A stretch of DNA of 32,000 nucleotides from Chlamydiota bacterium (GTDB taxonomy: Bacteria; Auribacterota; JACPWU01), in NCBI GenBank assembly GCA_016196885.1, contig JACPWU010000026.1:10082-42081 (forward strand). Direction: 5' to 3'. Shown here piece by piece: positions 11,862 through 31,766 of this stretch (position 1 is the stretch's first letter; each line of letters opens with the position of its first letter). The translations under genes were made by a program, and so were the position numbers. The notes under the pieces are model-generated. The model was not told the origin of the DNA. It did not search any database and worked only from the letters and a program-made list of their open reading frames with translations.

Positions 11862-11936
11862 TGCCCCCGAGACGAGTCGAACGTCCGACCTAGGCTTTAG
11901 GAAAGCCTCGCTCTATCCAAGCTGAGCTACGGGGGC
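11862..11936 (-). tRNA. tRNA-Arg (anticodon CCT)
   Basis: The reverse complement folds by hand into a cloverleaf: acceptor GCCCCCG/CGGGGGC, D arm GCTC..GAGC, anticodon stem AGGCT/AGCCT with loop TTCCTAA, T arm GGACG TTCGACT CGTCT, discriminator A. No encoded CCA. Confidence 0.9.
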
Positions 11937-14414: not shown

Positions 14415-14485
14415 TGCCGGATCGTCTAATGGTAGGACCGCAGACTCTGGATCTGTGTATCTAGGTTCGAATCCTAGTCCGGCAG
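14415..14485 (+). tRNA. tRNA-Gln (anticodon CTG)
   Basis: Hand-folded cloverleaf: acceptor TGCCGGA/TCCGGCA (a U1-A72 pair is typical of tRNA-Gln), D arm GTCT..GGAC, anticodon stem GCAGA/TCTGT with loop CTCTGGA, T arm CTAGG TTCGAAT CCTAG, discriminator G. Confidence 0.9.
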
Positions 14486-14601: not shown

Positions 14602-14674
14602 GGCCCCATCGTCTAGAGGCCTAGGACATTACCCTCTCAAGGTAGGGACACGGGTTCGAATCCCGTTGGGGCTA
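14602..14674 (+). tRNA. tRNA-Glu (anticodon CTC)
   Basis: Acceptor GGCCCCA/TGGGGCT, D arm GTCT AGAGGCCTA GGAC (typical of tRNA-Glu), anticodon stem TTACC/GGTAG with loop CTCTCAA, T arm ACGGG TTCGAAT CCCGT. Confidence 0.9.
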
Positions 14675-14724: not shown

Positions 14725-14774
14725 AACTATAGATTATAGATCTTTGGTTGTATAGATTTTTTCATCGAGAGTTT

Positions 14775-17501
14775 ATGTCCTTTCATGAATCTTCTTCCTT
14801 AAAGAAAGATGTTCGTTTTCTGACGACGCTCTTAGGCGATGTGATTCGAGAGCAGGAGGGGGAAGACCTTTTTCTTAAGGTCGAAGAAATTCGAAAACTT
14901 GCCAAGAAGATTCGAGAATGTCCTACAGACGAGAAGATTTCGGAGCAGAAAAGAATCATTCATCAACTCACCCTTGACGAAGCTTATAAAATTGCCAGGG
15001 CCTTTACGATTTATTTTCAATTGGTGAACATTGCTGAAGAGCGCCATCGGGTTCGCAGGATCCGGTCTTACGAAAAGGACTTGTCGCTTTTTCAAGAGAT
15101 GTCCCTGCACAAGCTTTTTCGGGATTTGTCGGAGGCATCTATTTCGAAGGAAGATGTTCAAGGTCTTTTGAAGGAATTGGAAATAGAATTGGTTTTAACC
15201 GCTCATCCGACGGAAGTCAAGCGCAGAACAGTTTTGGATCATCTCTTGAGAATTTCTTCCGTCTTGTCTTCCCTGGAGAGACTCGATGTGACCTTCCCTG
15301 AGAAAGAAGAGGCCGTGAGCCAAATCAAGGAGACGCTTGAGATTTTATGGCAGACAACAGAGGTGCGTCAAAAAAAAGTTGAAGTTTTGGATGAAGTCGA
15401 GCAGACCCTTTTTTATTTCCGGCATACCATTTTAGAATTGATGCCTCGTCTTTATCAGAAAATAGGGAGAGAATTCGAAAGGTTTTATCAGAAGGAATTG
15501 CTTTTATTTCCTTCTCTTCGCTTTGGGTCCTGGGTCGGGTCTGACCGGGATGGGAATCCGAACGTCACACCTGTTGTAAGCCTAAAATCCGTCATGCTTT
15601 ATCGCAGGTTGATTCTGAGACATTATTTGGGCGTTGTCGAAGATTTCATTCGAAGATTTAGTCAGTCTTTGCGCCGCATTTCTGTGAGTGAGGAGCTTTT
15701 GAGCTCTTTGAAAATGGACAGAAAAAAGATGCCTTCTTTGGCTCGCGAGATGGAGCGTTTTGAGCCCACAGAAGTTTACCGGAAAAAATTCACCTTCATC
15801 CATCGGCAGCTCGAAAATACCTTGAATCAGAAAAAGTCTGCTTATCCGAGTGAAGAGGTGTTTTTGAAAGATGTTTTGATCGTGAAAAGGAGTTTAGAAG
15901 CTCATCAAGGACATTTTGCTGCCCGAGGGGATTTGGATGACTTGATTTGCAAGATTAAAATTTTTGGTTTTCATTTAGCAAAACTTGATTTCAGGGATCA
16001 CACAGGAAAGATTCGGAAAACGCTCCAAGAGCTTTTTCCAAAAGAAGCTCTCAATGAAGAGATGATTTTGAAAAAAATAAAATCGGGTGAAAAAATACCT
16101 TCTCGCTCTTCTCTTTCACCTGACGCCAGAGATATTTTAAGTCAGTTGGCGACCCTTCAAAAAAATCAGGAGCTCAACACCCAGGCTTTTGAAAATTATA
16201 TTTTGAGCATGACAGAAAAGGCATGCGATGTGCTTTCTTTTTTCTATTTGGCCCAAGGGAGGAAATTGATCAAGGGGGTCGCAGGGCGTGTCAGGGAATC
16301 TCGCGTGGGGATTGTCCCTCTTTTTGAAACGATTGAATCTTTGGATCATGCGCATGAAGTGATGGATCATCTCTTTCAAAATCCGCTCTATCGCTCTTAC
16401 GTGACATCCAGGGATGATATTCAAGAGGTGATGCTGGGTTATTCTGACAGTAGCAAGGATGGAGGATATTTTGCGGCCAATTGGAAAATTTATGAAGCTC
16501 AAAAAAGATTGGTTGAAGTGGCTGAAAGGCATCGGGTCAAGCTTCGTCTTTTTCATGGTAAGGGAGGTACCATTGATCGTGGGGGAGGGGAATCCCATAA
16601 GGCCATTTTGGCTCAACCGGAGGCGGCCGTAGGAGGCCGTATTAAAATGACAGAACAGGGAGAGGTGGTCTCGCAAAAATATGCGAATCCTGTCATTGCC
16701 GAGAGAAATTGGGAGCAGCTCGTCAGTGCGGTGATGGAGGCCCAGCTTATTTCAAGGAAAAAACTCGAGGCAGAGCCTCGCATTGCGGTTTGGGAATCTC
16801 GAATGAATCACTTAGCGGATTTGTCTTTCCATTTTTATCGGGAATTCATTCTTGGGACTCAGAATTTTTTAGATTTTTATCACCAGGCAACCCCGATTGA
16901 AATTTTGAAGGAGACTCGAATTGCGTCGCGGCCTCCCTCTCGGATGGATCAAAAGAGTTTCGGGGCCCTTCGGGCCATCCCTTGGGTTTTTAGCTGGGTG
17001 CAATCCAGATACATTATTTCTGCTTGGTATGGGATCGGTCATGCCTTGGAAGCTTATTTGGATGAGCGTGGGAAAGGAGGTCTTGAGGAGCTTCGAGAGA
17101 TGTATCGCGAATGGCCTTTTTTTTCTTCCTTGCTAAACAATGCGCAAGTTTCTTTGGCCAAGACGGACCTTTACATTGCTGAGCAATATGCATCCTTGGT
17201 AAAAGATGAGAGTTGTCGAGAGAAAATCCATGAGAAAATTGCCTTAGAGTACAAACGTTCTGTGAAATATGTTTTAGAAATTGCACAGAGTGACGAGCTT
17301 CTCAATTTTCATCCCGTTTTGAAAGAATCCATTCGCTTGAGAAATCCGTATGTGGATCCCTTGAATTACCTTCAGGTGAGATTCTTGAGAGAATCCCGTT
17401 CAGAAAAAGATCGCAAGGCTGAAGGCTTACAAAATAAAAGGAATGAAATTCTTCTTTTGACCGTGAATGGCATTGCGTTTGGAATGAAGAGTACGGGATA
17501 A
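14775..17501 (+). CDS. ppc: Phosphoenolpyruvate carboxylase
   Basis: VLTAHPTE, FHGKGGTIDRGGG and C-terminal NGIAFGMKSTG are the hallmark PEPC motifs. ATG 14775 (MSFHESSSLKKDVRFLTTLLGDVI) is preferred over the TTG at 14748 in the ORF track. Confidence 0.93.
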   Translation: MSFHESSSLKKDVRFLTTLLGDVIREQEGEDLFLKVEEIRKLAKKIRECPTDEKISEQKRIIHQLTLDEAYKIARAFTIYFQLVNIAEERHRVRRIRSYEKDLSLFQEMSLHKLFRDLSEASISKEDVQGLLKELEIELVLTAHPTEVKRRTVLDHLLRISSVLSSLERLDVTFPEKEEAVSQIKETLEILWQTTEVRQKKVEVLDEVEQTLFYFRHTILELMPRLYQKIGREFERFYQKELLLFPSLRFGSWVGSDRDGNPNVTPVVSLKSVMLYRRLILRHYLGVVEDFIRRFSQSLRRISVSEELLSSLKMDRKKMPSLAREMERFEPTEVYRKKFTFIHRQLENTLNQKKSAYPSEEVFLKDVLIVKRSLEAHQGHFAARGDLDDLICKIKIFGFHLAKLDFRDHTGKIRKTLQELFPKEALNEEMILKKIKSGEKIPSRSSLSPDARDILSQLATLQKNQELNTQAFENYILSMTEKACDVLSFFYLAQGRKLIKGVAGRVRESRVGIVPLFETIESLDHAHEVMDHLFQNPLYRSYVTSRDDIQEVMLGYSDSSKDGGYFAANWKIYEAQKRLVEVAERHRVKLRLFHGKGGTIDRGGGESHKAILAQPEAAVGGRIKMTEQGEVVSQKYANPVIAERNWEQLVSAVMEAQLISRKKLEAEPRIAVWESRMNHLADLSFHFYREFILGTQNFLDFYHQATPIEILKETRIASRPPSRMDQKSFGALRAIPWVFSWVQSRYIISAWYGIGHALEAYLDERGKGGLEELREMYREWPFFSSLLNNAQVSLAKTDLYIAEQYASLVKDESCREKIHEKIALEYKRSVKYVLEIAQSDELLNFHPVLKESIRLRNPYVDPLNYLQVRFLRESRSEKDRKAEGLQNKRNEILLLTVNGIAFGMKSTG

Positions 17502-17675: not shown

Positions 17676-20600
17676 ATGCGCTTATCTTTTCAAGGCTATT
17701 TCCTTCGCATGTTTTTTTTCTTTCTATCCTTCATTTTTATTATCAAACAAGGCTACACCGAAAAAATTGATTTCCCCGAAGTTTTTGGAAAGGTGAATGA
17801 ATCTTACGAAGGTCATTCTCAGCGCACGGTGATCATTATTCAGGACACTCACCGCAATGATGAATGTCAGGTGAACGCCGTTCAAATTCTGAATTCCATT
17901 TCTACGCGTGAGAGTATTCCTTTGATTGCGTTGGAGGGAGCCAAAGGACCTTTTTTGACTTCTATGATTCGAAATCTTCCAGATAAAAATTTGAATCAAG
18001 AAGTTGCAACTTATTTTTTAAGAGAAGGACGAATCACGGCGCCGGAATATTTTGCGATGGTGAGCGAGTGGGCTCTCCATACAGAACTTTTGGGTGTGGA
18101 GGATCGAGACCTTTATTTGAAGGATCTGGATCTTTTTAAGAAGGCTCATGAAGAGGCCAAGGGGTTGGAGAATGCCTTGTCCACGTTGGATAAAATGCTG
18201 ATTCAGCTCAAGGCGGAGGTTTATTCCGGGGAGTTAAAGGATTGGGACGTTTTGGTGGATGAATATCAGAAGGGGAGAATCCCTTTCAAGGCCTATTTTA
18301 GAAAATTATTTCAGGGGGCTCAAGAAAGTCCTCAGATTTTGCAGGATTATCCAGAGGGGGTCAGTCAAGGTGAGATTTTTAAACTGGAGGAGAAAATCCA
18401 ATTTTTTGTCCTCGATCAAGAACGATCTAAAATGATCACGGCCTTAAGCCAGAGGCTTTCTTCCAAAATGCTTTCGAAACTTTTGGTCCGTAGCCTTGAC
18501 TATCGTATGAGAAGAATGTCTTCTTACCTTTATCATCGTCTCTTGTGGCGTTTGGCCCGAGGCGTTGGACTCAAGCCAGAGGATTATCCTAATTTAGACC
18601 TTTATGAAACGTACATTGAGAGGATTCACGGTCTTTCAGAGAAAAAGCTTTTTAAAGAATTGAGTGCCCTGACAGAATTCTTCCAAAAGAAGTCTGTTCA
18701 GAGTGAAGGTCAAAGAGAGTTGGTGGACATCTCTCGCCGGTTGAGTCTGATTGAAAAGATGATGCAATTGAGAATTTCAAATGAAGATTTTGAGGATTTC
18801 TTGTCTCATGAAGATACTTATCGCTGGGAGAAAATGGTACGCCCACTTGAAGATCTGGCCCATTCCTTGGAGATCCATTTTGTCTTGCCTGAGGAATTGA
18901 AACAGTTGGATCAAACTTTACCACTTTTTAGATCTTTTTATGAAGCGGCGCTCCAGAGAAATCAGGCCATGGTCCGGAATCTTCTTGAGCGGATGGATAT
19001 TTTAAATGACCGCTTCGCTGTTTTATTCATCGGCGGTTTTCATATTCAGGGGGTGAGCGCATTGTTAAAAGAAAAGGGTGTTTCCTATTTTGTCATCACG
19101 CCTCGTGTGACCACGTTACAAACGGGTGAGTCTCTCTATTTTCCTTTGCTTCTGAATGAAAAAAATATTTTTGAGAAATGGTCTACCCCCATTTCCTTTC
19201 TTCCATCTGCATTAGAGGCCCCCCACGTTTTGAATGATCCCCCTTTGGCCTATCCGGATCAGCAGGTGGCTGTGTTAAGGCTTTATGCCCTTTTCTTTGA
19301 AGGGGTTAAACTTTTGGATCATCTTTCTGAAGAAAAATTGAACGGTGTCCCATGGCTGGAAAAAGACCGGGTGTGGGGTTCCTTGGAGAAGATAGTTGAA
19401 AAGGCAGGAGGCGATACTTTTAAAATGTGTTTTTCATCCAGCGTTTTGAAGGAAGGGGTATTGGAAGTTCCTGTGTATTTTCGAAATGAAGAGGGAGAGG
19501 AGTCGGCGGCCAGTGTCTTATTTAGAGAGGGTCCGTTTGCCGAGGTGAAAATGGATGATCGGGTCATGACACAAGAAGGGTCCTCCCTTCTTGCCTTAGA
19601 GACTTTGCATTTTTCCCAGAGGGATATTCAGGTGTGTGTGGTTGAAAGAAATTCGGCTGAGATGAAGATTCACAGAGAATGGAGGGATCGGGTTTTGAGG
19701 GAGAAGCTCCAGGATTTGGGTTTTTCTAAGAGATTCTCCCAGGATTTGGCTTTTCAATTGACACACGCATGGAGATCTTCGGGAGAAAATTTAGAACGAC
19801 TTAAAAAAAATTTTCGGGAGGAGTTTAAAGATAAAAATTTAGATGGGAAGAGGGCTTTAGAGATTTTAGAAGCTTTTCACCAAGCAGCGGTCAGCCCCTT
19901 TGATTTTTTAACCTTGGAAGATTGGGCGAAAGCCTTTCTAGAGGCAGGCCTTTACGAGAACGGGGCTGAAGGGAAACAATTTGAGGAAATGAAGGCGATG
20001 GCCTCTCTGGAGCGTCGTTCCTGGAATGAGTTTCAGGATTTTGGGGATGATTTTTTGAATCAGGAACTTCTGATGAAAAAGCCAGTGGTGATGGGCGTGG
20101 AATGGGAAAGCCTTTTCGACGTGCAAGAGAAGGATCCGAACACTTTTGAAGTGAGATGGATGGCTCCCGAATTGGGACAGATTCTCAAGTGTTTTTGGGC
20201 TTATTCTGGAGAGAGGGGGCAAAGGGGAAAAGGTTTGAAATTCGTTTTTTTCAGTTTTCAACCAACCGTGGATAAGGCGTTGATGCGTCAGGTGCTTATT
20301 TCTGCAGGCATTCCTGAAGAGGGACTTCAGGGGTGTCTGATAGATAGGAGCGATCTTCAAAGAGTGGAAAATCCTAATCAAACCTTGTATCGTTTGATTC
20401 AGGATCAAACAGGAATTTCTCCAGAACGGGTGGCCTTGATTTGTTTGGAAGAAAGTCCTTTAAAATTTAAAAAGGTGAATCAAGTGGTTGCGAGACTCCA
20501 AAGGCCAGGGCTTGCGACAGGTAAGAGGGTTGATTTTTGTGATGCCTTGGCGACGGCGATGGTTCTTTTAAATGAGTCTATTGATAAAAAGGGAGACGGG

Positions 20601-20795
20601 ATTTTAAATTCTTTTGTTCAGGTCTTGGCAAAACGATTGGGAAAGACCGAAGAAGAGGCATCAAGGGTTTTAAGATCGGTGATGGCTGCAAAGGGTTATA
20701 CCTTTTCCGCTGAAGATGATTTGACAGGAGCGAGTGAAATGGAGAGAATAGGGGTCCAAAAGGAAAACCCGGCGAGAGAAAAGGAGAAGGGATGA
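17676..20795 (+). CDS. Large secreted/membrane-anchored protein of unknown function; N-terminal half has TraB/GumN/Tiki-like motifs
   Basis: 1039-aa uninterrupted ORF with N-terminal hydrophobic anchor FFFFLSFIFII. TVIIIQDTH(59)RND...IPLIALEGA and FAVLFIGGFH(456)IQGVSALLKEKGVSYFV resemble the GTxH...E...GxxH(l)xG...L...Gy motifs of the TraB/GumN/Tiki superfamily. I do not recognise aa 500-1039. Confidence 0.6.
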   Translation: MRLSFQGYFLRMFFFFLSFIFIIKQGYTEKIDFPEVFGKVNESYEGHSQRTVIIIQDTHRNDECQVNAVQILNSISTRESIPLIALEGAKGPFLTSMIRNLPDKNLNQEVATYFLREGRITAPEYFAMVSEWALHTELLGVEDRDLYLKDLDLFKKAHEEAKGLENALSTLDKMLIQLKAEVYSGELKDWDVLVDEYQKGRIPFKAYFRKLFQGAQESPQILQDYPEGVSQGEIFKLEEKIQFFVLDQERSKMITALSQRLSSKMLSKLLVRSLDYRMRRMSSYLYHRLLWRLARGVGLKPEDYPNLDLYETYIERIHGLSEKKLFKELSALTEFFQKKSVQSEGQRELVDISRRLSLIEKMMQLRISNEDFEDFLSHEDTYRWEKMVRPLEDLAHSLEIHFVLPEELKQLDQTLPLFRSFYEAALQRNQAMVRNLLERMDILNDRFAVLFIGGFHIQGVSALLKEKGVSYFVITPRVTTLQTGESLYFPLLLNEKNIFEKWSTPISFLPSALEAPHVLNDPPLAYPDQQVAVLRLYALFFEGVKLLDHLSEEKLNGVPWLEKDRVWGSLEKIVEKAGGDTFKMCFSSSVLKEGVLEVPVYFRNEEGEESAASVLFREGPFAEVKMDDRVMTQEGSSLLALETLHFSQRDIQVCVVERNSAEMKIHREWRDRVLREKLQDLGFSKRFSQDLAFQLTHAWRSSGENLERLKKNFREEFKDKNLDGKRALEILEAFHQAAVSPFDFLTLEDWAKAFLEAGLYENGAEGKQFEEMKAMASLERRSWNEFQDFGDDFLNQELLMKKPVVMGVEWESLFDVQEKDPNTFEVRWMAPELGQILKCFWAYSGERGQRGKGLKFVFFSFQPTVDKALMRQVLISAGIPEEGLQGCLIDRSDLQRVENPNQTLYRLIQDQTGISPERVALICLEESPLKFKKVNQVVARLQRPGLATGKRVDFCDALATAMVLLNESIDKKGDGILNSFVQVLAKRLGKTEEEASRVLRSVMAAKGYTFSAEDDLTGASEMERIGVQKENPAREKEKG

Positions 20796-21277
20796 TGAGA
20801 ATGAAAAAATTTTGTTTGAGCGTGTGTTGGATTTTTTTGATTTCTACTTTTTTAAATGCGGAAAATACTCCAGTCAGTGCTAAGGCAGAGGATCCCGTTT
20901 ATGAAAAGGCATATGATCTCTATAATCAGGCCAAATACGATGATGCGATGGCTCTTTTCAAACAAATTTTGGAGAAGGATTCGAAAAATTTAAAGGCCCA
21001 GGTCTATTATGGGGTTTGTTTTATGGGGAAAGAGGAGTTCGATCAGGCGATTGTAGAGTTGGAAAAAGCCTTGAGTTTGGATGCAAAATTCCCTCTCACG
21101 AATTATGCCTTGTCCGTGAGTTATGCTCGAAAGTCTTCGCCGGATGCGATGAAGGCGGAAGAATATTTGGGGTTGGCCAAAAAATATGGATATCAAGTGC
21201 CTGCCTGGTTTGAGCAGTATTTGGATCGCTTGAAAAAAGGGAAGGTTCCTGCCCAGAAAGAAGAGAAAAAACCTTAA
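20792..21277 (+). CDS. Secreted TPR repeat protein
   Basis: ATGA overlap with the upstream stop. Signal peptide MKKFCLSVCWIFLISTFLNA, TPR-like units (AYDLYNQAKYDDAMALFKQILEKD; AQVYYGVCFMGKEEFDQAIVELEKALSLD) and a lysine-rich tail. Confidence 0.7.
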   Translation: MMRMKKFCLSVCWIFLISTFLNAENTPVSAKAEDPVYEKAYDLYNQAKYDDAMALFKQILEKDSKNLKAQVYYGVCFMGKEEFDQAIVELEKALSLDAKFPLTNYALSVSYARKSSPDAMKAEEYLGLAKKYGYQVPAWFEQYLDRLKKGKVPAQKEEKKP

Positions 21278-21319: not shown

Positions 21320-21530
21320 AGTGCTGCGGTAGTGGGTCCTGTCCCTCCTCACCCAGCAAAGGAGGCCCGCTGCCTGTGGAAGAAAAAGGGCCGACTGCGG
21401 TAGTAGATGTTTTCTTACCTTATACTGAGACGGCATCGGTCTCGTCAATATTTTAGTCTAGGTGCATGGAGTAATGTCTCGACCTGCTGGCGCTCGATGG
21501 GGGACCCCCAGTCGGGCCACCCACTATTTT
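21320..21530 (+). ncRNA. Candidate structured RNA or structured leader (class unknown)
   Basis: No ORF of 60 aa or more in any frame. 117/210 G+C by hand count, against visibly AT-richer flanks. Nested long-range pairings: TAGTGGGT 21330-21337 with ACCCACTA 21519-21526, and GGGCCGACTG 21388-21397 with CAGTCGGGCC 21509-21518 (one mismatch). Local hairpins CCTCC/GGAGG 21344-21365 and GAGAC/GTCTC 21427-21443. The strand is not established. Confidence 0.35.
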
Positions 21531-21554: not shown

Positions 21555-23822
21555 ATGATGAAACTCGAAAAAGATATGTCCCTTTCCGATCTGGCTCGTG
21601 ATTTTTCAACGCGGCTTTATTTTCCTAAGGATGCAAACTGGGAGGAATTAAGTGAATTTCTTTCTGGCCAGATTTTTCAAAGGGCTCAAGGACTTCACGC
21701 GCAGGGGATGAAGGAGGATCGTTTTGGCTATAAGAGTCGCATCAGTGGGATTTTTGGCGATGCCTCGGCCAAGGATCGTAAGGCAATTGATGAGTATTTG
21801 TGCTCTCAGGAGGAAAGGGGAGCCCGTGTCATGATTCACGCAGGGATTGGGGGGCAGGCCTTGGGCAGTCGCGCCCAGATTGAGTCTGTGGGGGTTCGCG
21901 AGGGGTATCGGGTGTACGTGTTGGAAAAGATAGGCATTGATTTCGCCAAACTTTATTCTGAAATTGAAGGAAAGGGTTTTAAGGCAAGCGAGATCTTGAT
22001 TCATGCGAGTTCTAAATCGGGGACGACCGATGAGACCATGATTAATTTTCAGAATGCCTTGAGGGCTTTGATTCGGGGCTTGGCTCAAGGGCGAGGACTT
22101 TCTTCAAATGTAGCACAAGACTTGATTTCGAAATATGAAGGCAAGGGGGATTTGGCGAAAATCAACTTGGTGTCTTTGGGTCTTTCGCTCGATCAAAAAA
22201 AATTGCTTCAAGAGGCGTTTGATCATGTTGTTTTTACAACCACGCCCGATTCAAAACAGAGTCGAATTTATGAATTGGCCCAAAGCCCTTTTGTGAAAGA
22301 ACTTTCGCAGGAGGTTGATGGTCAGACCCAAGGGCTTTTGACTTTCCCTATCCCAAACAATGTGGGTGGAAGATTTTCTAGGCGCAGTCAGTCTGGAGAA
22401 TTGAGCGCTGGTTTTGCAGGGCGGGATATTTTTAAAATTTATGAAGGGGCTTTGAAAATTCTTCCCCTGTTTGAAACATCAGATATTCAAGTTAATCCAG
22501 CTTTGAAGTTGGCCCTTTTAATTTATCTTTCGAAAGTAGATTTTATATGCGCCTCTGTTCAATCTTCGAATCAAATGGCGGTGGCCGATGCCTTCCGCCA
22601 GCTTTTTCCTGAAAGCAATGGGAAGGATGGTCAGGGACCCTTTGTCGTGAGCTCTGTTGGACAAAAAGAGTTAAACGATCGAATGCATTCTCTTTTGAAT
22701 ACTTTCTATATTTTAATCAATGTCCAGGGCGATCAAGGAAAGAATTTAGAATTGGTTCGCCCTGTGGATTCAAAGAGATTTTGTTTTGAATATCGTCAGA
22801 AAAATCTGTCTGAAGAAGAAGAAGCCATGAGGGATTTATTCTTTGATGAAATGACGGTGTGGTTTGGCCTCTTGAGTGCGGCAGAGATTGCGACGGACAT
22901 TCATTCGAAGGAATATGAAAAACGAGACCCTCAGAATCAACCTTTTGTCGAGCATGGGAAGAAATTAATGAGGGTATCTGCAAAGAATTTAGATCGGGCT
23001 AGCGGAGCTGCTCGAAGACGGTGTGAAGAAGAATCTAGAAAAGTAAAGAGCGGCCCTATCATTGATTCTATTCATTTGTTCGAGAATAAAAGAAAGCTGA
23101 ATGCTGAAGAGGGTGAGGGGCGTATTCAAAAAATTCTTTCGAAAATGATTTTTCCTTCAGGAATATCTCAGAATGATCAGGAGCTTGAACATCTTTTGAA
23201 GAAAGTTTCAGCTTTAAGAGTTAAGCGACGTTTAACGAGGGCAATGGGAGAGGTTGCTCAACTGGACCAGGAAATAGAAAATTTCTACACTCGATTTTCT
23301 GATTTTGGTCGAGCTTCTTTACCGGATCCATCAGAAAGGCAAGCTCGTATTTTGGCAGCCTTGATTTGTGAAGAGCATCAAAAAGGTAAAATGGTTTTGC
23401 CGGTTTTTTATACGGCTTTAGAACAGGCTGAGATTTTGGGAGAATGGTGGAGATTTGTTGGGGGAAGATACTTGCACGATTTTGGATTGGGCACGCGAGA
23501 ACAGCATTCTCATTTTCAAAGTCTTTTGGATGGGAAAGAGGTGGTTCTCCCCTTGCTCATAGATTTTGTAACTCCTTATGAAGAAATGGGTCGTCGAGAA
23601 GAAAAAATCGAATCTTATGGACTGGCCAAGGATTATTTAAAGGGTTTGTATCCTGATGAGGTGCGCCGTCTTTATTTAGAAGCCGAGGCCAAGACTTTTG
23701 TCAAGATTACAAAGAGAAGTTGTATGGTGTTGAGAATGAAAGACTTAGGATCTAAAGAGGCTGAGTTAGAGGCGTGGCGATTTTTTACAAGGGTTTGGGG
23801 TATTTTGCATGCAACGGGTTAA
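21555..23822 (+). CDS. Glucose-6-phosphate isomerase family protein, atypically long (755 aa) with a C-terminal partial repeat
   Basis: PGI/SIS motifs in canonical order: HAGIGGQALGSRA, SSKSGTTDET, NNVGGRFS, FPE(353)SNGK, MH(378)SLL, NQPFVEHGK(469)K. aa 610-755 then repeats the EWW...GT.EQH(651)SHFQ...G segment. AAGGAA RBS. Confidence 0.75.
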   Translation: MMKLEKDMSLSDLARDFSTRLYFPKDANWEELSEFLSGQIFQRAQGLHAQGMKEDRFGYKSRISGIFGDASAKDRKAIDEYLCSQEERGARVMIHAGIGGQALGSRAQIESVGVREGYRVYVLEKIGIDFAKLYSEIEGKGFKASEILIHASSKSGTTDETMINFQNALRALIRGLAQGRGLSSNVAQDLISKYEGKGDLAKINLVSLGLSLDQKKLLQEAFDHVVFTTTPDSKQSRIYELAQSPFVKELSQEVDGQTQGLLTFPIPNNVGGRFSRRSQSGELSAGFAGRDIFKIYEGALKILPLFETSDIQVNPALKLALLIYLSKVDFICASVQSSNQMAVADAFRQLFPESNGKDGQGPFVVSSVGQKELNDRMHSLLNTFYILINVQGDQGKNLELVRPVDSKRFCFEYRQKNLSEEEEAMRDLFFDEMTVWFGLLSAAEIATDIHSKEYEKRDPQNQPFVEHGKKLMRVSAKNLDRASGAARRRCEEESRKVKSGPIIDSIHLFENKRKLNAEEGEGRIQKILSKMIFPSGISQNDQELEHLLKKVSALRVKRRLTRAMGEVAQLDQEIENFYTRFSDFGRASLPDPSERQARILAALICEEHQKGKMVLPVFYTALEQAEILGEWWRFVGGRYLHDFGLGTREQHSHFQSLLDGKEVVLPLLIDFVTPYEEMGRREEKIESYGLAKDYLKGLYPDEVRRLYLEAEAKTFVKITKRSCMVLRMKDLGSKEAELEAWRFFTRVWGILHATG

Positions 23823-31657: not shown

Positions 31658-31713
31658 GCACCTCTAACGGCAGCTGACTGCCCCGACGTTACATCAGGGC
31701 TCTTAAGCTTTGC

Positions 31714-31732
31714 GTCGCCCGATTACTCGGGC
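31714..31732 (+). repeat. REP singlet (half copy)
   Basis: GTC GCCCGAttacTCGGGC has the same stem as the first hairpin of the REP doublet. The GTAG head has degenerated to GCG and the second hairpin is absent. Confidence 0.6.
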
Positions 31733-31766
31733 TTTGCCTTGATCATTAGAGAATCAAAACCAAAAA

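Follow-up and report, generated by a model that had tools for sequence, protein, structure and literature searches.

A probable REPIN/MITE-like foldback repeat, with a second repeat nested inside it, in front of a PGI-like gene

Introduction

REPIN spacers differ in every copy and yet keep the hairpin (PMC3337134). The element that I will discuss in this article resembles REPINs in being short (~90-200 nt), extragenic and multicopy, in folding into a long imperfect hairpin with conserved end blocks around a spacer or stem that is copy-specific yet paired, and in sitting often at gene 3' ends and inside operons. It departs from them in three respects. Its hairpin has variable segments that remain paired, but the conserved blocks on the 5' and 3' sides make up an asymmetric loop and do not represent one REP in two inverted copies; the element does not border any RAYT gene; and the core hardly changes across several phyla, in contrast to the usual confinement of a REP family to one lineage. 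The likeness to prokaryotic MITEs (Correia/NEMIS, ERIC, BOX-like) is of a similar kind, the element being non-coding, small, multicopy, dispersed, modular, nested, polymorphic in its insertion and absent from orthologous sites, with TIRs of ~30 bp and 8-bp target duplications in a subset of copies; unlike MITEs, its "naked" copies have neither a shared TIR nor a direct duplication and are flanked by copy-specific inverted repeats, and an autonomous parent was not found among the half-sites and loci searched (see below). Membership in the REPINs or the MITEs therefore fails on defining points, because there is no RAYT and the naked copies lack a shared TIR and a target duplication.

Two functional systems also deserve comparison. 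Integron attC sites are recognised by their fold and not by their sequence, and share with the element conserved extrahelical bases, covarying stems, a variable terminal structure and a similar size; in contrast to them, the element ends in GGGU/ACCC without R''/R' core motifs, forms no cassette arrays, has no integron integrase nearby and is dispersed between housekeeping genes. The small self-cleaving ribozymes (twister, hammerhead, pistol, hatchet, HDV-like) are likewise compact, multicopy and patchy, with conserved junction or loop bases and variable stems, whereas the element gives no Rfam ribozyme match even at E<=10, keeps to no consistent strand and contains no recognisable catalytic-core motif.

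Here I argue that positions 21326-21530 (+) of the window, by which I mean the whole 32,000-nt stretch of DNA that was analysed, are probably a non-coding, hairpin-forming foldback repeat, REPIN/MITE-like in character and inserted in a lineage-specific manner. The repeat is multicopy, patchily distributed across phyla, absent from orthologous spacers and built of nested parts, and a subset of its copies has moved by ordinary transposition inside a TIR-bounded MITE with 8-bp target duplications. A preliminary description had proposed a candidate novel structured RNA upstream of the PGI-like gene; what survives of this is a real, uncatalogued folded element with long-range pairings, and what does not is its specificity to that gene.

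The locus and its fold

The segment lies between two genes on its own strand. The upstream one (20792-21277, +) has Pfam TPR matches, and the element begins 48 nt past its stop codon; the downstream one (21555-23822, +) has a PGI-like product, and 24 nt separate its start codon from the end of the element. The PGI-like protein is 755 aa long with a Pfam PGI match that is weak and partial (27 bits, residues 92-190), and orthologs of ~765 aa are present in the family; a metagenome search for close relatives, intended to obtain an empty site, returned only a homolog that is 26% identical. A further ORF of 1039 aa at 17676-20795 (+), which belongs to no Pfam family, overlaps with its end the start of the TPR gene (20792).

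Several first impressions of the segment hold on closer inspection. It is richer in G+C than its surroundings (117/211 or 55.5% for 21320-21530 against 44.1% for the whole window), the ORFs that overlap it are only 41-43 aa long, and the two copies of a 10-nt direct repeat, at 21324 and 21395, match exactly, the second being part of the conserved tail of a nested module described below. The + strand of the window copy folds at -81.4 kcal/mol (z = -2.14 against shuffles) and the - strand no better than shuffles (z = -0.09); a promoter suggested for the minus strand is not called by a consensus promoter scan. Consensus features of SRP, 6S, tmRNA, RNase P, TPP and cobalamin RNAs had not been recognised at first reading, and Rfam 15 has no match in the region at gathering score or E<=10. 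A search with the whole window likewise brings up nothing at the element, the standalone module matches no family, and the short copies give only Xoo2, whose 26 bits, on the terminator-like 3' part, fall short of the gathering score of 45. An alternative local 3' hairpin, taken from the Xoo2 alignment, was rejected, as its two would-be pairing positions do not covary; HDV-like, hairpin-ribozyme, twister, SRP/4.5S and 6S folds misfit in helix order or hallmark motifs, and no model of them matched.

A covariance model built from short copies of the element, R1, covers 21326-21530 at full length (55.5 bits, E 5e-12) and has no other match in the window. The window copy is a long form, in which the core hairpin repeat is combined with the nested module, and the core is more easily understood from the short copies, which when read side by side define a unit of ~116 nt. 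All positions given below for the window copy are on the + strand.

Architecture and covariation of the core

The core opens with a closing stem, of which the inner part (4 bp, GGGU/ACCC) is constant throughout the family, while the outer pairs (5-17 bp, depending on the copy) differ in every copy and yet stay complementary. In the window copy the 5' arm at 21328-21337 pairs with 21519-21528, the outer 6 bp being peculiar to this copy; the 3' arm runs on into a U-rich tail (21519-21530), as seen in the sequence and in the R1 match. Within this stem, the originally proposed pairing of 21330-21337 with 21519-21526 is a perfect 8 bp, and the helix drawn from a single copy turns out to be the closing stem of a whole family, backed by covariation between copies.

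Inside the closing stem follows the conserved 5' strand of the core (21338-21354), whose columns vary little or not at all among 40 copies taken from several phyla. It consists of an invariant 3-nt CCU bulge (21338-40), one half of a 5-bp helix that contains a fixed pyrimidine-pyrimidine mismatch (21341-45, paired with 21514-18), a tandem pyrimidine mismatch of UC with CU plus 2 bp (21346-49), the dinucleotide CA (21350-51) and the start of a C run (21352-54). The small, asymmetric, C-rich loop (2x6) then leads to stem B, 10 bp made up of a C/G run and five variable pairs, and to an apical arm that is lineage-specific; in the window copy this arm occupies 21431-21492 and has conserved flanks and a variable tip in alignments of short and long copies. 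On the return strand, the 3' half of stem B (21493-21503) is followed by the conserved 3' strand of the core (21504-21518), in which conserved columns and pair statistics delimit a variable base, a C run, AGUC and the other half of the 5-bp helix.

Pairs of this structure were counted in an alignment of 40 short copies. Changes on both sides of a pair occupy 152 cells, compared with 62.8±7.2 in shuffles (0/500 reach the observed value) and 29-45 when the partners are slid, and 80.9% of the cells are paired as opposed to 41-50% with slid partners. One pair of the 5-bp helix exchanges C-G, A-U and G-C across copies, and the neighbouring position is nearly always U·C or C·U and hardly ever U·U or C·C; this exchange of U·C for C·U is an unusual covariation, and would read as G·A for A·G on the opposite strand. 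Stem B is more variable still, its 3' strand in short copies pairing over 10 bp in at least 10 different covarying sequences, and about 12 different, perfectly paired stem-B sequences occur within one genome. Conservation lies instead in the bases of the bulge, mismatches and loop, which form an asymmetric set and hardly vary between phyla, and unpaired bases that stay put while the stems change freely imply a specific reader, be it an enzyme or an RNA fold.

A chimera of two repeat families

The window copy is a chimera of this core and a 76-nt module from a second repeat family (21355-21430), which begins directly after the third C in the C run of the core and interrupts stem B. On contig C63 a sister copy retains the two halves of stem B, one on either side of the insert; in the window copy the 5' half has been displaced by the insertion and has decayed. 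The module contains GGAGG at 21361-65, a hairpin of its own at 21364-92 that covaries between copies, and a conserved tail at 21393-21409, after which come a U-rich stretch and the decayed junction. It also stands alone, at about 12 loci in the window's own genome (G000) and in G001, a third genus of the same family, where the module is present and the core absent; conversely, four genomes with the core lack the module, namely G002, G003, a Nitrospira MAG and a Patescibacteria genome. Loci L006, L002 and L012 of G001 show the module embedded in a different, larger repeat with flanks shared on both sides.

The nesting accounts for the two-domain appearance of the segment, because the juxtaposition of module and core produces both the apparent 5' domain and the helix between 21388-21397 and 21509-21518. 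That helix is 9/10 complementary in the window copy, is lost in other long-form copies and is in competition with the hairpin formed within the module (21364-21368 with 21388-21392). It is one of two helices of the preliminary description that sister copies do not conserve. The second is the GAGAC/GTCTC hairpin, which is broken there, the pairing kept instead being that of 21438-21441 with 21481-21484. The CCTCC/GGAGG pairing is present in the window copy, and its sequence is invariant in all long forms, hence the lack of a covariation signal.

Further small inserts sit in loops of the core. Copies L027, L043 and L050 of the Nitrospira MAG, for example, carry a palindromic insert of ~22 nt in the conserved 3' loop, directly after AGUC.

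Copy number and distribution

When the segment is compared by BLAST with its own assembly (G000; 2.23 Mb, 66 contigs), seven full-length copies of 70-85% identity appear together with dozens of partial and modular matches, and R1 raises the count to 45 matches in this 2.2-Mb genome. Across the phylum, 3/79 genomes have R1 matches, namely G000 and the two genomes of one sister genus, G002 (39) and G003 (12); there are none in the other 76, G001 included. Beyond the phylum, a Nitrospira MAG yields 25 copies with R1, a Patescibacteria genome of only 0.4 Mb yields 7, and a Saccharibacteria MAG and a gammaproteobacterial MAG yield 4 each; in a sample of other Patescibacteria genomes, 4/150 have matches. 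An exact-pattern scan of species genomes adds complete elements in Saccharibacteria, Parcubacteria, Levyibacteriota and other Patescibacteria, where copies take a minimal form of ~75 nt, and in gammaproteobacterial MAGs, a Pseudomonadota MAG and the Nitrospira MAG; its matches in GC-rich genes of Streptomyces and others were set aside as chance, lacking the 3' half. The element was not found in viral contigs, phage records or plasmid records, and literature searches by motif and keywords returned no description of it. Among the gammaproteobacterial MAGs, L047, L021 and L070 show the element at the same flanking site in three assemblies, in one of which the interior is deleted between the two C runs and the conserved ends remain.

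The surroundings of these copies bear directly on the question of a PGI leader. G001 keeps the TPR-PGI gene order, with TPR proteins that are 57% identical, and has a spacer of 88 nt between the genes without the element; the corresponding spacer of G002 measures 151 nt and also lacks it, and nothing of the kind precedes the PGI-like orthologs of G001, G002 and G003. In other phyla the neighbours are unrelated housekeeping genes (pheS, purB/purA, atpA/atpG, gatC, tsaE), next to which the element lies in both orientations. The segment is one of ~45 copies in its genome and occurs in distant phyla, and so it is not a regulator dedicated to the PGI-like gene; nor is it a sugar-phosphate sensor.

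A carrier MITE and naked copies

In eleven G000 copies and most of those in G002, the core occupies the exact middle of a MITE that has TIRs of ~30 bp and is flanked by direct target duplications of 8 bp. In G000 this MITE is found on contigs C2, C13, C27, C30, C32, C35, C53, C62, C63 and C64; the homologous carrier in G002 is abundant and contains a variant core. The carrier also exists without its cargo, since at G000:C61:21225-21283 the two TIRs are joined tip to tip into a perfect palindrome of 44 bp that is still flanked by an 8-bp direct repeat. This subset alone has the shared TIRs and direct target duplication of a classical MITE. The naked copies, that of the window included, are bordered instead by inverted repeats private to each copy, complementary at 5.7/10 positions against 2.9 in cross-copy controls and sometimes overlapping the upstream stop codon.

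The machinery behind the naked copies was sought in several ways. Autonomous long copies, in which an ORF would separate the 5' and 3' halves, were not seen among the unpaired half-sites of G000 or in 95 fetched loci, bearing in mind that MAG assemblies may lack IS copies, and no transposase, RAYT or other protein was found linked to the naked copies. The single Y1_Tnp (IS200/RAYT-type) gene of G000, encoding 333 aa at L162:862-1863 (-) on contig C7, has no element beside it, and none was present in G002, the Saccharibacteria MAG or the gammaproteobacterial MAG; a link to RAYT/Y1 transposases was thus not found.

Competing explanations

Under the foldback-repeat reading that I consider probable, the conserved unpaired bases would serve as a recognition surface for a copying machinery that acts on the folded single strand, and the complementary, copy-specific flanks would stem either from insertion at the tips or centres of palindromes or from hairpin extension by template switching. 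The inverted flanks and the insertions at hairpin tips point to mobility or hairpin extension of this sort and not to textbook cut-and-paste with direct duplications. At the window locus the element would be co-transcribed between the TPR and PGI-like genes and act at most as a generic stable mRNA hairpin. Several observations run against the reading: the near-identical unpaired bases and replaced stems look like site-by-site constraint and not like neutral decay; orientation in G000 is strongly tied to transcription, with copies placed directly after stop codons; the naked copies have no linked transposase or RAYT and no direct target duplication; and the element is missing from the collections of phage, viral and plasmid sequences in which a vector might be expected.

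One rival suggestion is that the core is a cis-acting structured RNA family, for instance a processing or stability element of mRNA 3' ends and intergenic regions or a candidate new small self-cleaving ribozyme, in which the conserved bulge and loop bases would form a putative active or protein-binding site and the stems would be free to vary. Conserved unpaired bases combined with covarying stems are a signature of functional RNA, in the window copy a fold better than that of shuffles is confined to the + strand, and no Rfam family matches the element. Its scatter among genomes also fits, as a patchy, multicopy, cross-phylum distribution is typical of small ribozymes such as twister, hammerhead and pistol. 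In G000, moreover, co-directional contexts are 24 sense to 1 antisense, the copies usually start 2-20 nt past a stop codon, and divergent promoter regions contain not one of the 23 copies found outside the TIR-bounded MITE. However, the bias does not travel with the core: sense and antisense number 7 to 7 in G002 with its variant core, 2 to 8 in the Nitrospira MAG, where the preference is reversed, and 7 to 10 in other genomes, and an ordinary MITE carries copies in both directions. A strong G·U excess is the norm in RNA helices under selection, whereas in the helices of the core G·U (34) does not exceed A·C (42), which fits complementarity at the level of DNA; and the fixed mismatches join two pyrimidines when read on the G000 sense strand, the other strand offering G·A pairs. 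The evidence for DNA as against RNA is mixed, and an RNA family is a live but somewhat unlikely rival.

A related suggestion is that the core is a folded single-stranded DNA site for a host or mobile enzyme, like integron attC sites, IS200/IS605 ends or REPs, with the asymmetric mismatches and bulge marking the strand and the position of cleavage, and insertion taking place at the tips of other hairpins. The attC-like architecture (conserved extrahelical or mismatched bases, covarying stems, variable tip) would suit such a site, as would mismatch statistics that are equal for both strands, the location of the core at the very centre of a palindromic MITE, of which there is a coreless form too, and the small elements inserted in the core's own loops. 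Yet attC R-box motifs and cassette arrays are missing, the element is not accompanied by an integrase or Y1 transposase, and the mixed orientation over short distances in G002 contigs argues against a simple lagging-strand rule. The suggestion also overlaps the foldback-repeat explanation and differs from it only in the class of enzyme; I regard it as a live but quite unlikely rival. A dedicated leader or riboswitch controlling the PGI-like gene, for which one could cite the 24-nt distance to the start codon, the shared orientation and the well-folded + strand, is extremely improbable in view of 45 copies beside unrelated genes, the absence of the element upstream of orthologs and a proposed fold that in part is not conserved even among sister copies.

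Significance

For the PGI locus, the outcome is the removal of a false lead, in that nothing points to a sugar-phosphate riboswitch before the PGI-like gene. In its place stands an undescribed repeat family whose unpaired bases are near-identical across very distant, mostly uncultured bacteria with small genomes. In these genomes the family accounts for a noticeable part of the intergenic DNA and is therefore likely to be a recurring confounder when such MAGs are searched for structured RNAs.

It is tempting to go further and see in the 75-120-nt core a new class of functional folded nucleic acid, either a small RNA that cleaves itself or recruits a protein, or a strand-specific recombination site in single-stranded DNA. 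I consider this unlikely; if it were true, an activity conserved across Patescibacteria, Nitrospirota, Gammaproteobacteria and the PVC-like lineage of the window would recognise the invariant bulge, the tandem mismatch and the asymmetric C-rich loop, and the element would spread by insertion into hairpin tips, creating inverted and not direct duplications of the flanks.

Other features of the window

The window also holds features of known kinds. Three tRNA genes lie at 11862-11936 (-), 14415-14485 (+) and 14602-14674 (+), two of them just upstream of a full-length PEP carboxylase gene (14748-17501), and a c-di-GMP-I riboswitch aptamer is present at 31666-31748 (-), scoring 63.5 bits, well above the gathering score.
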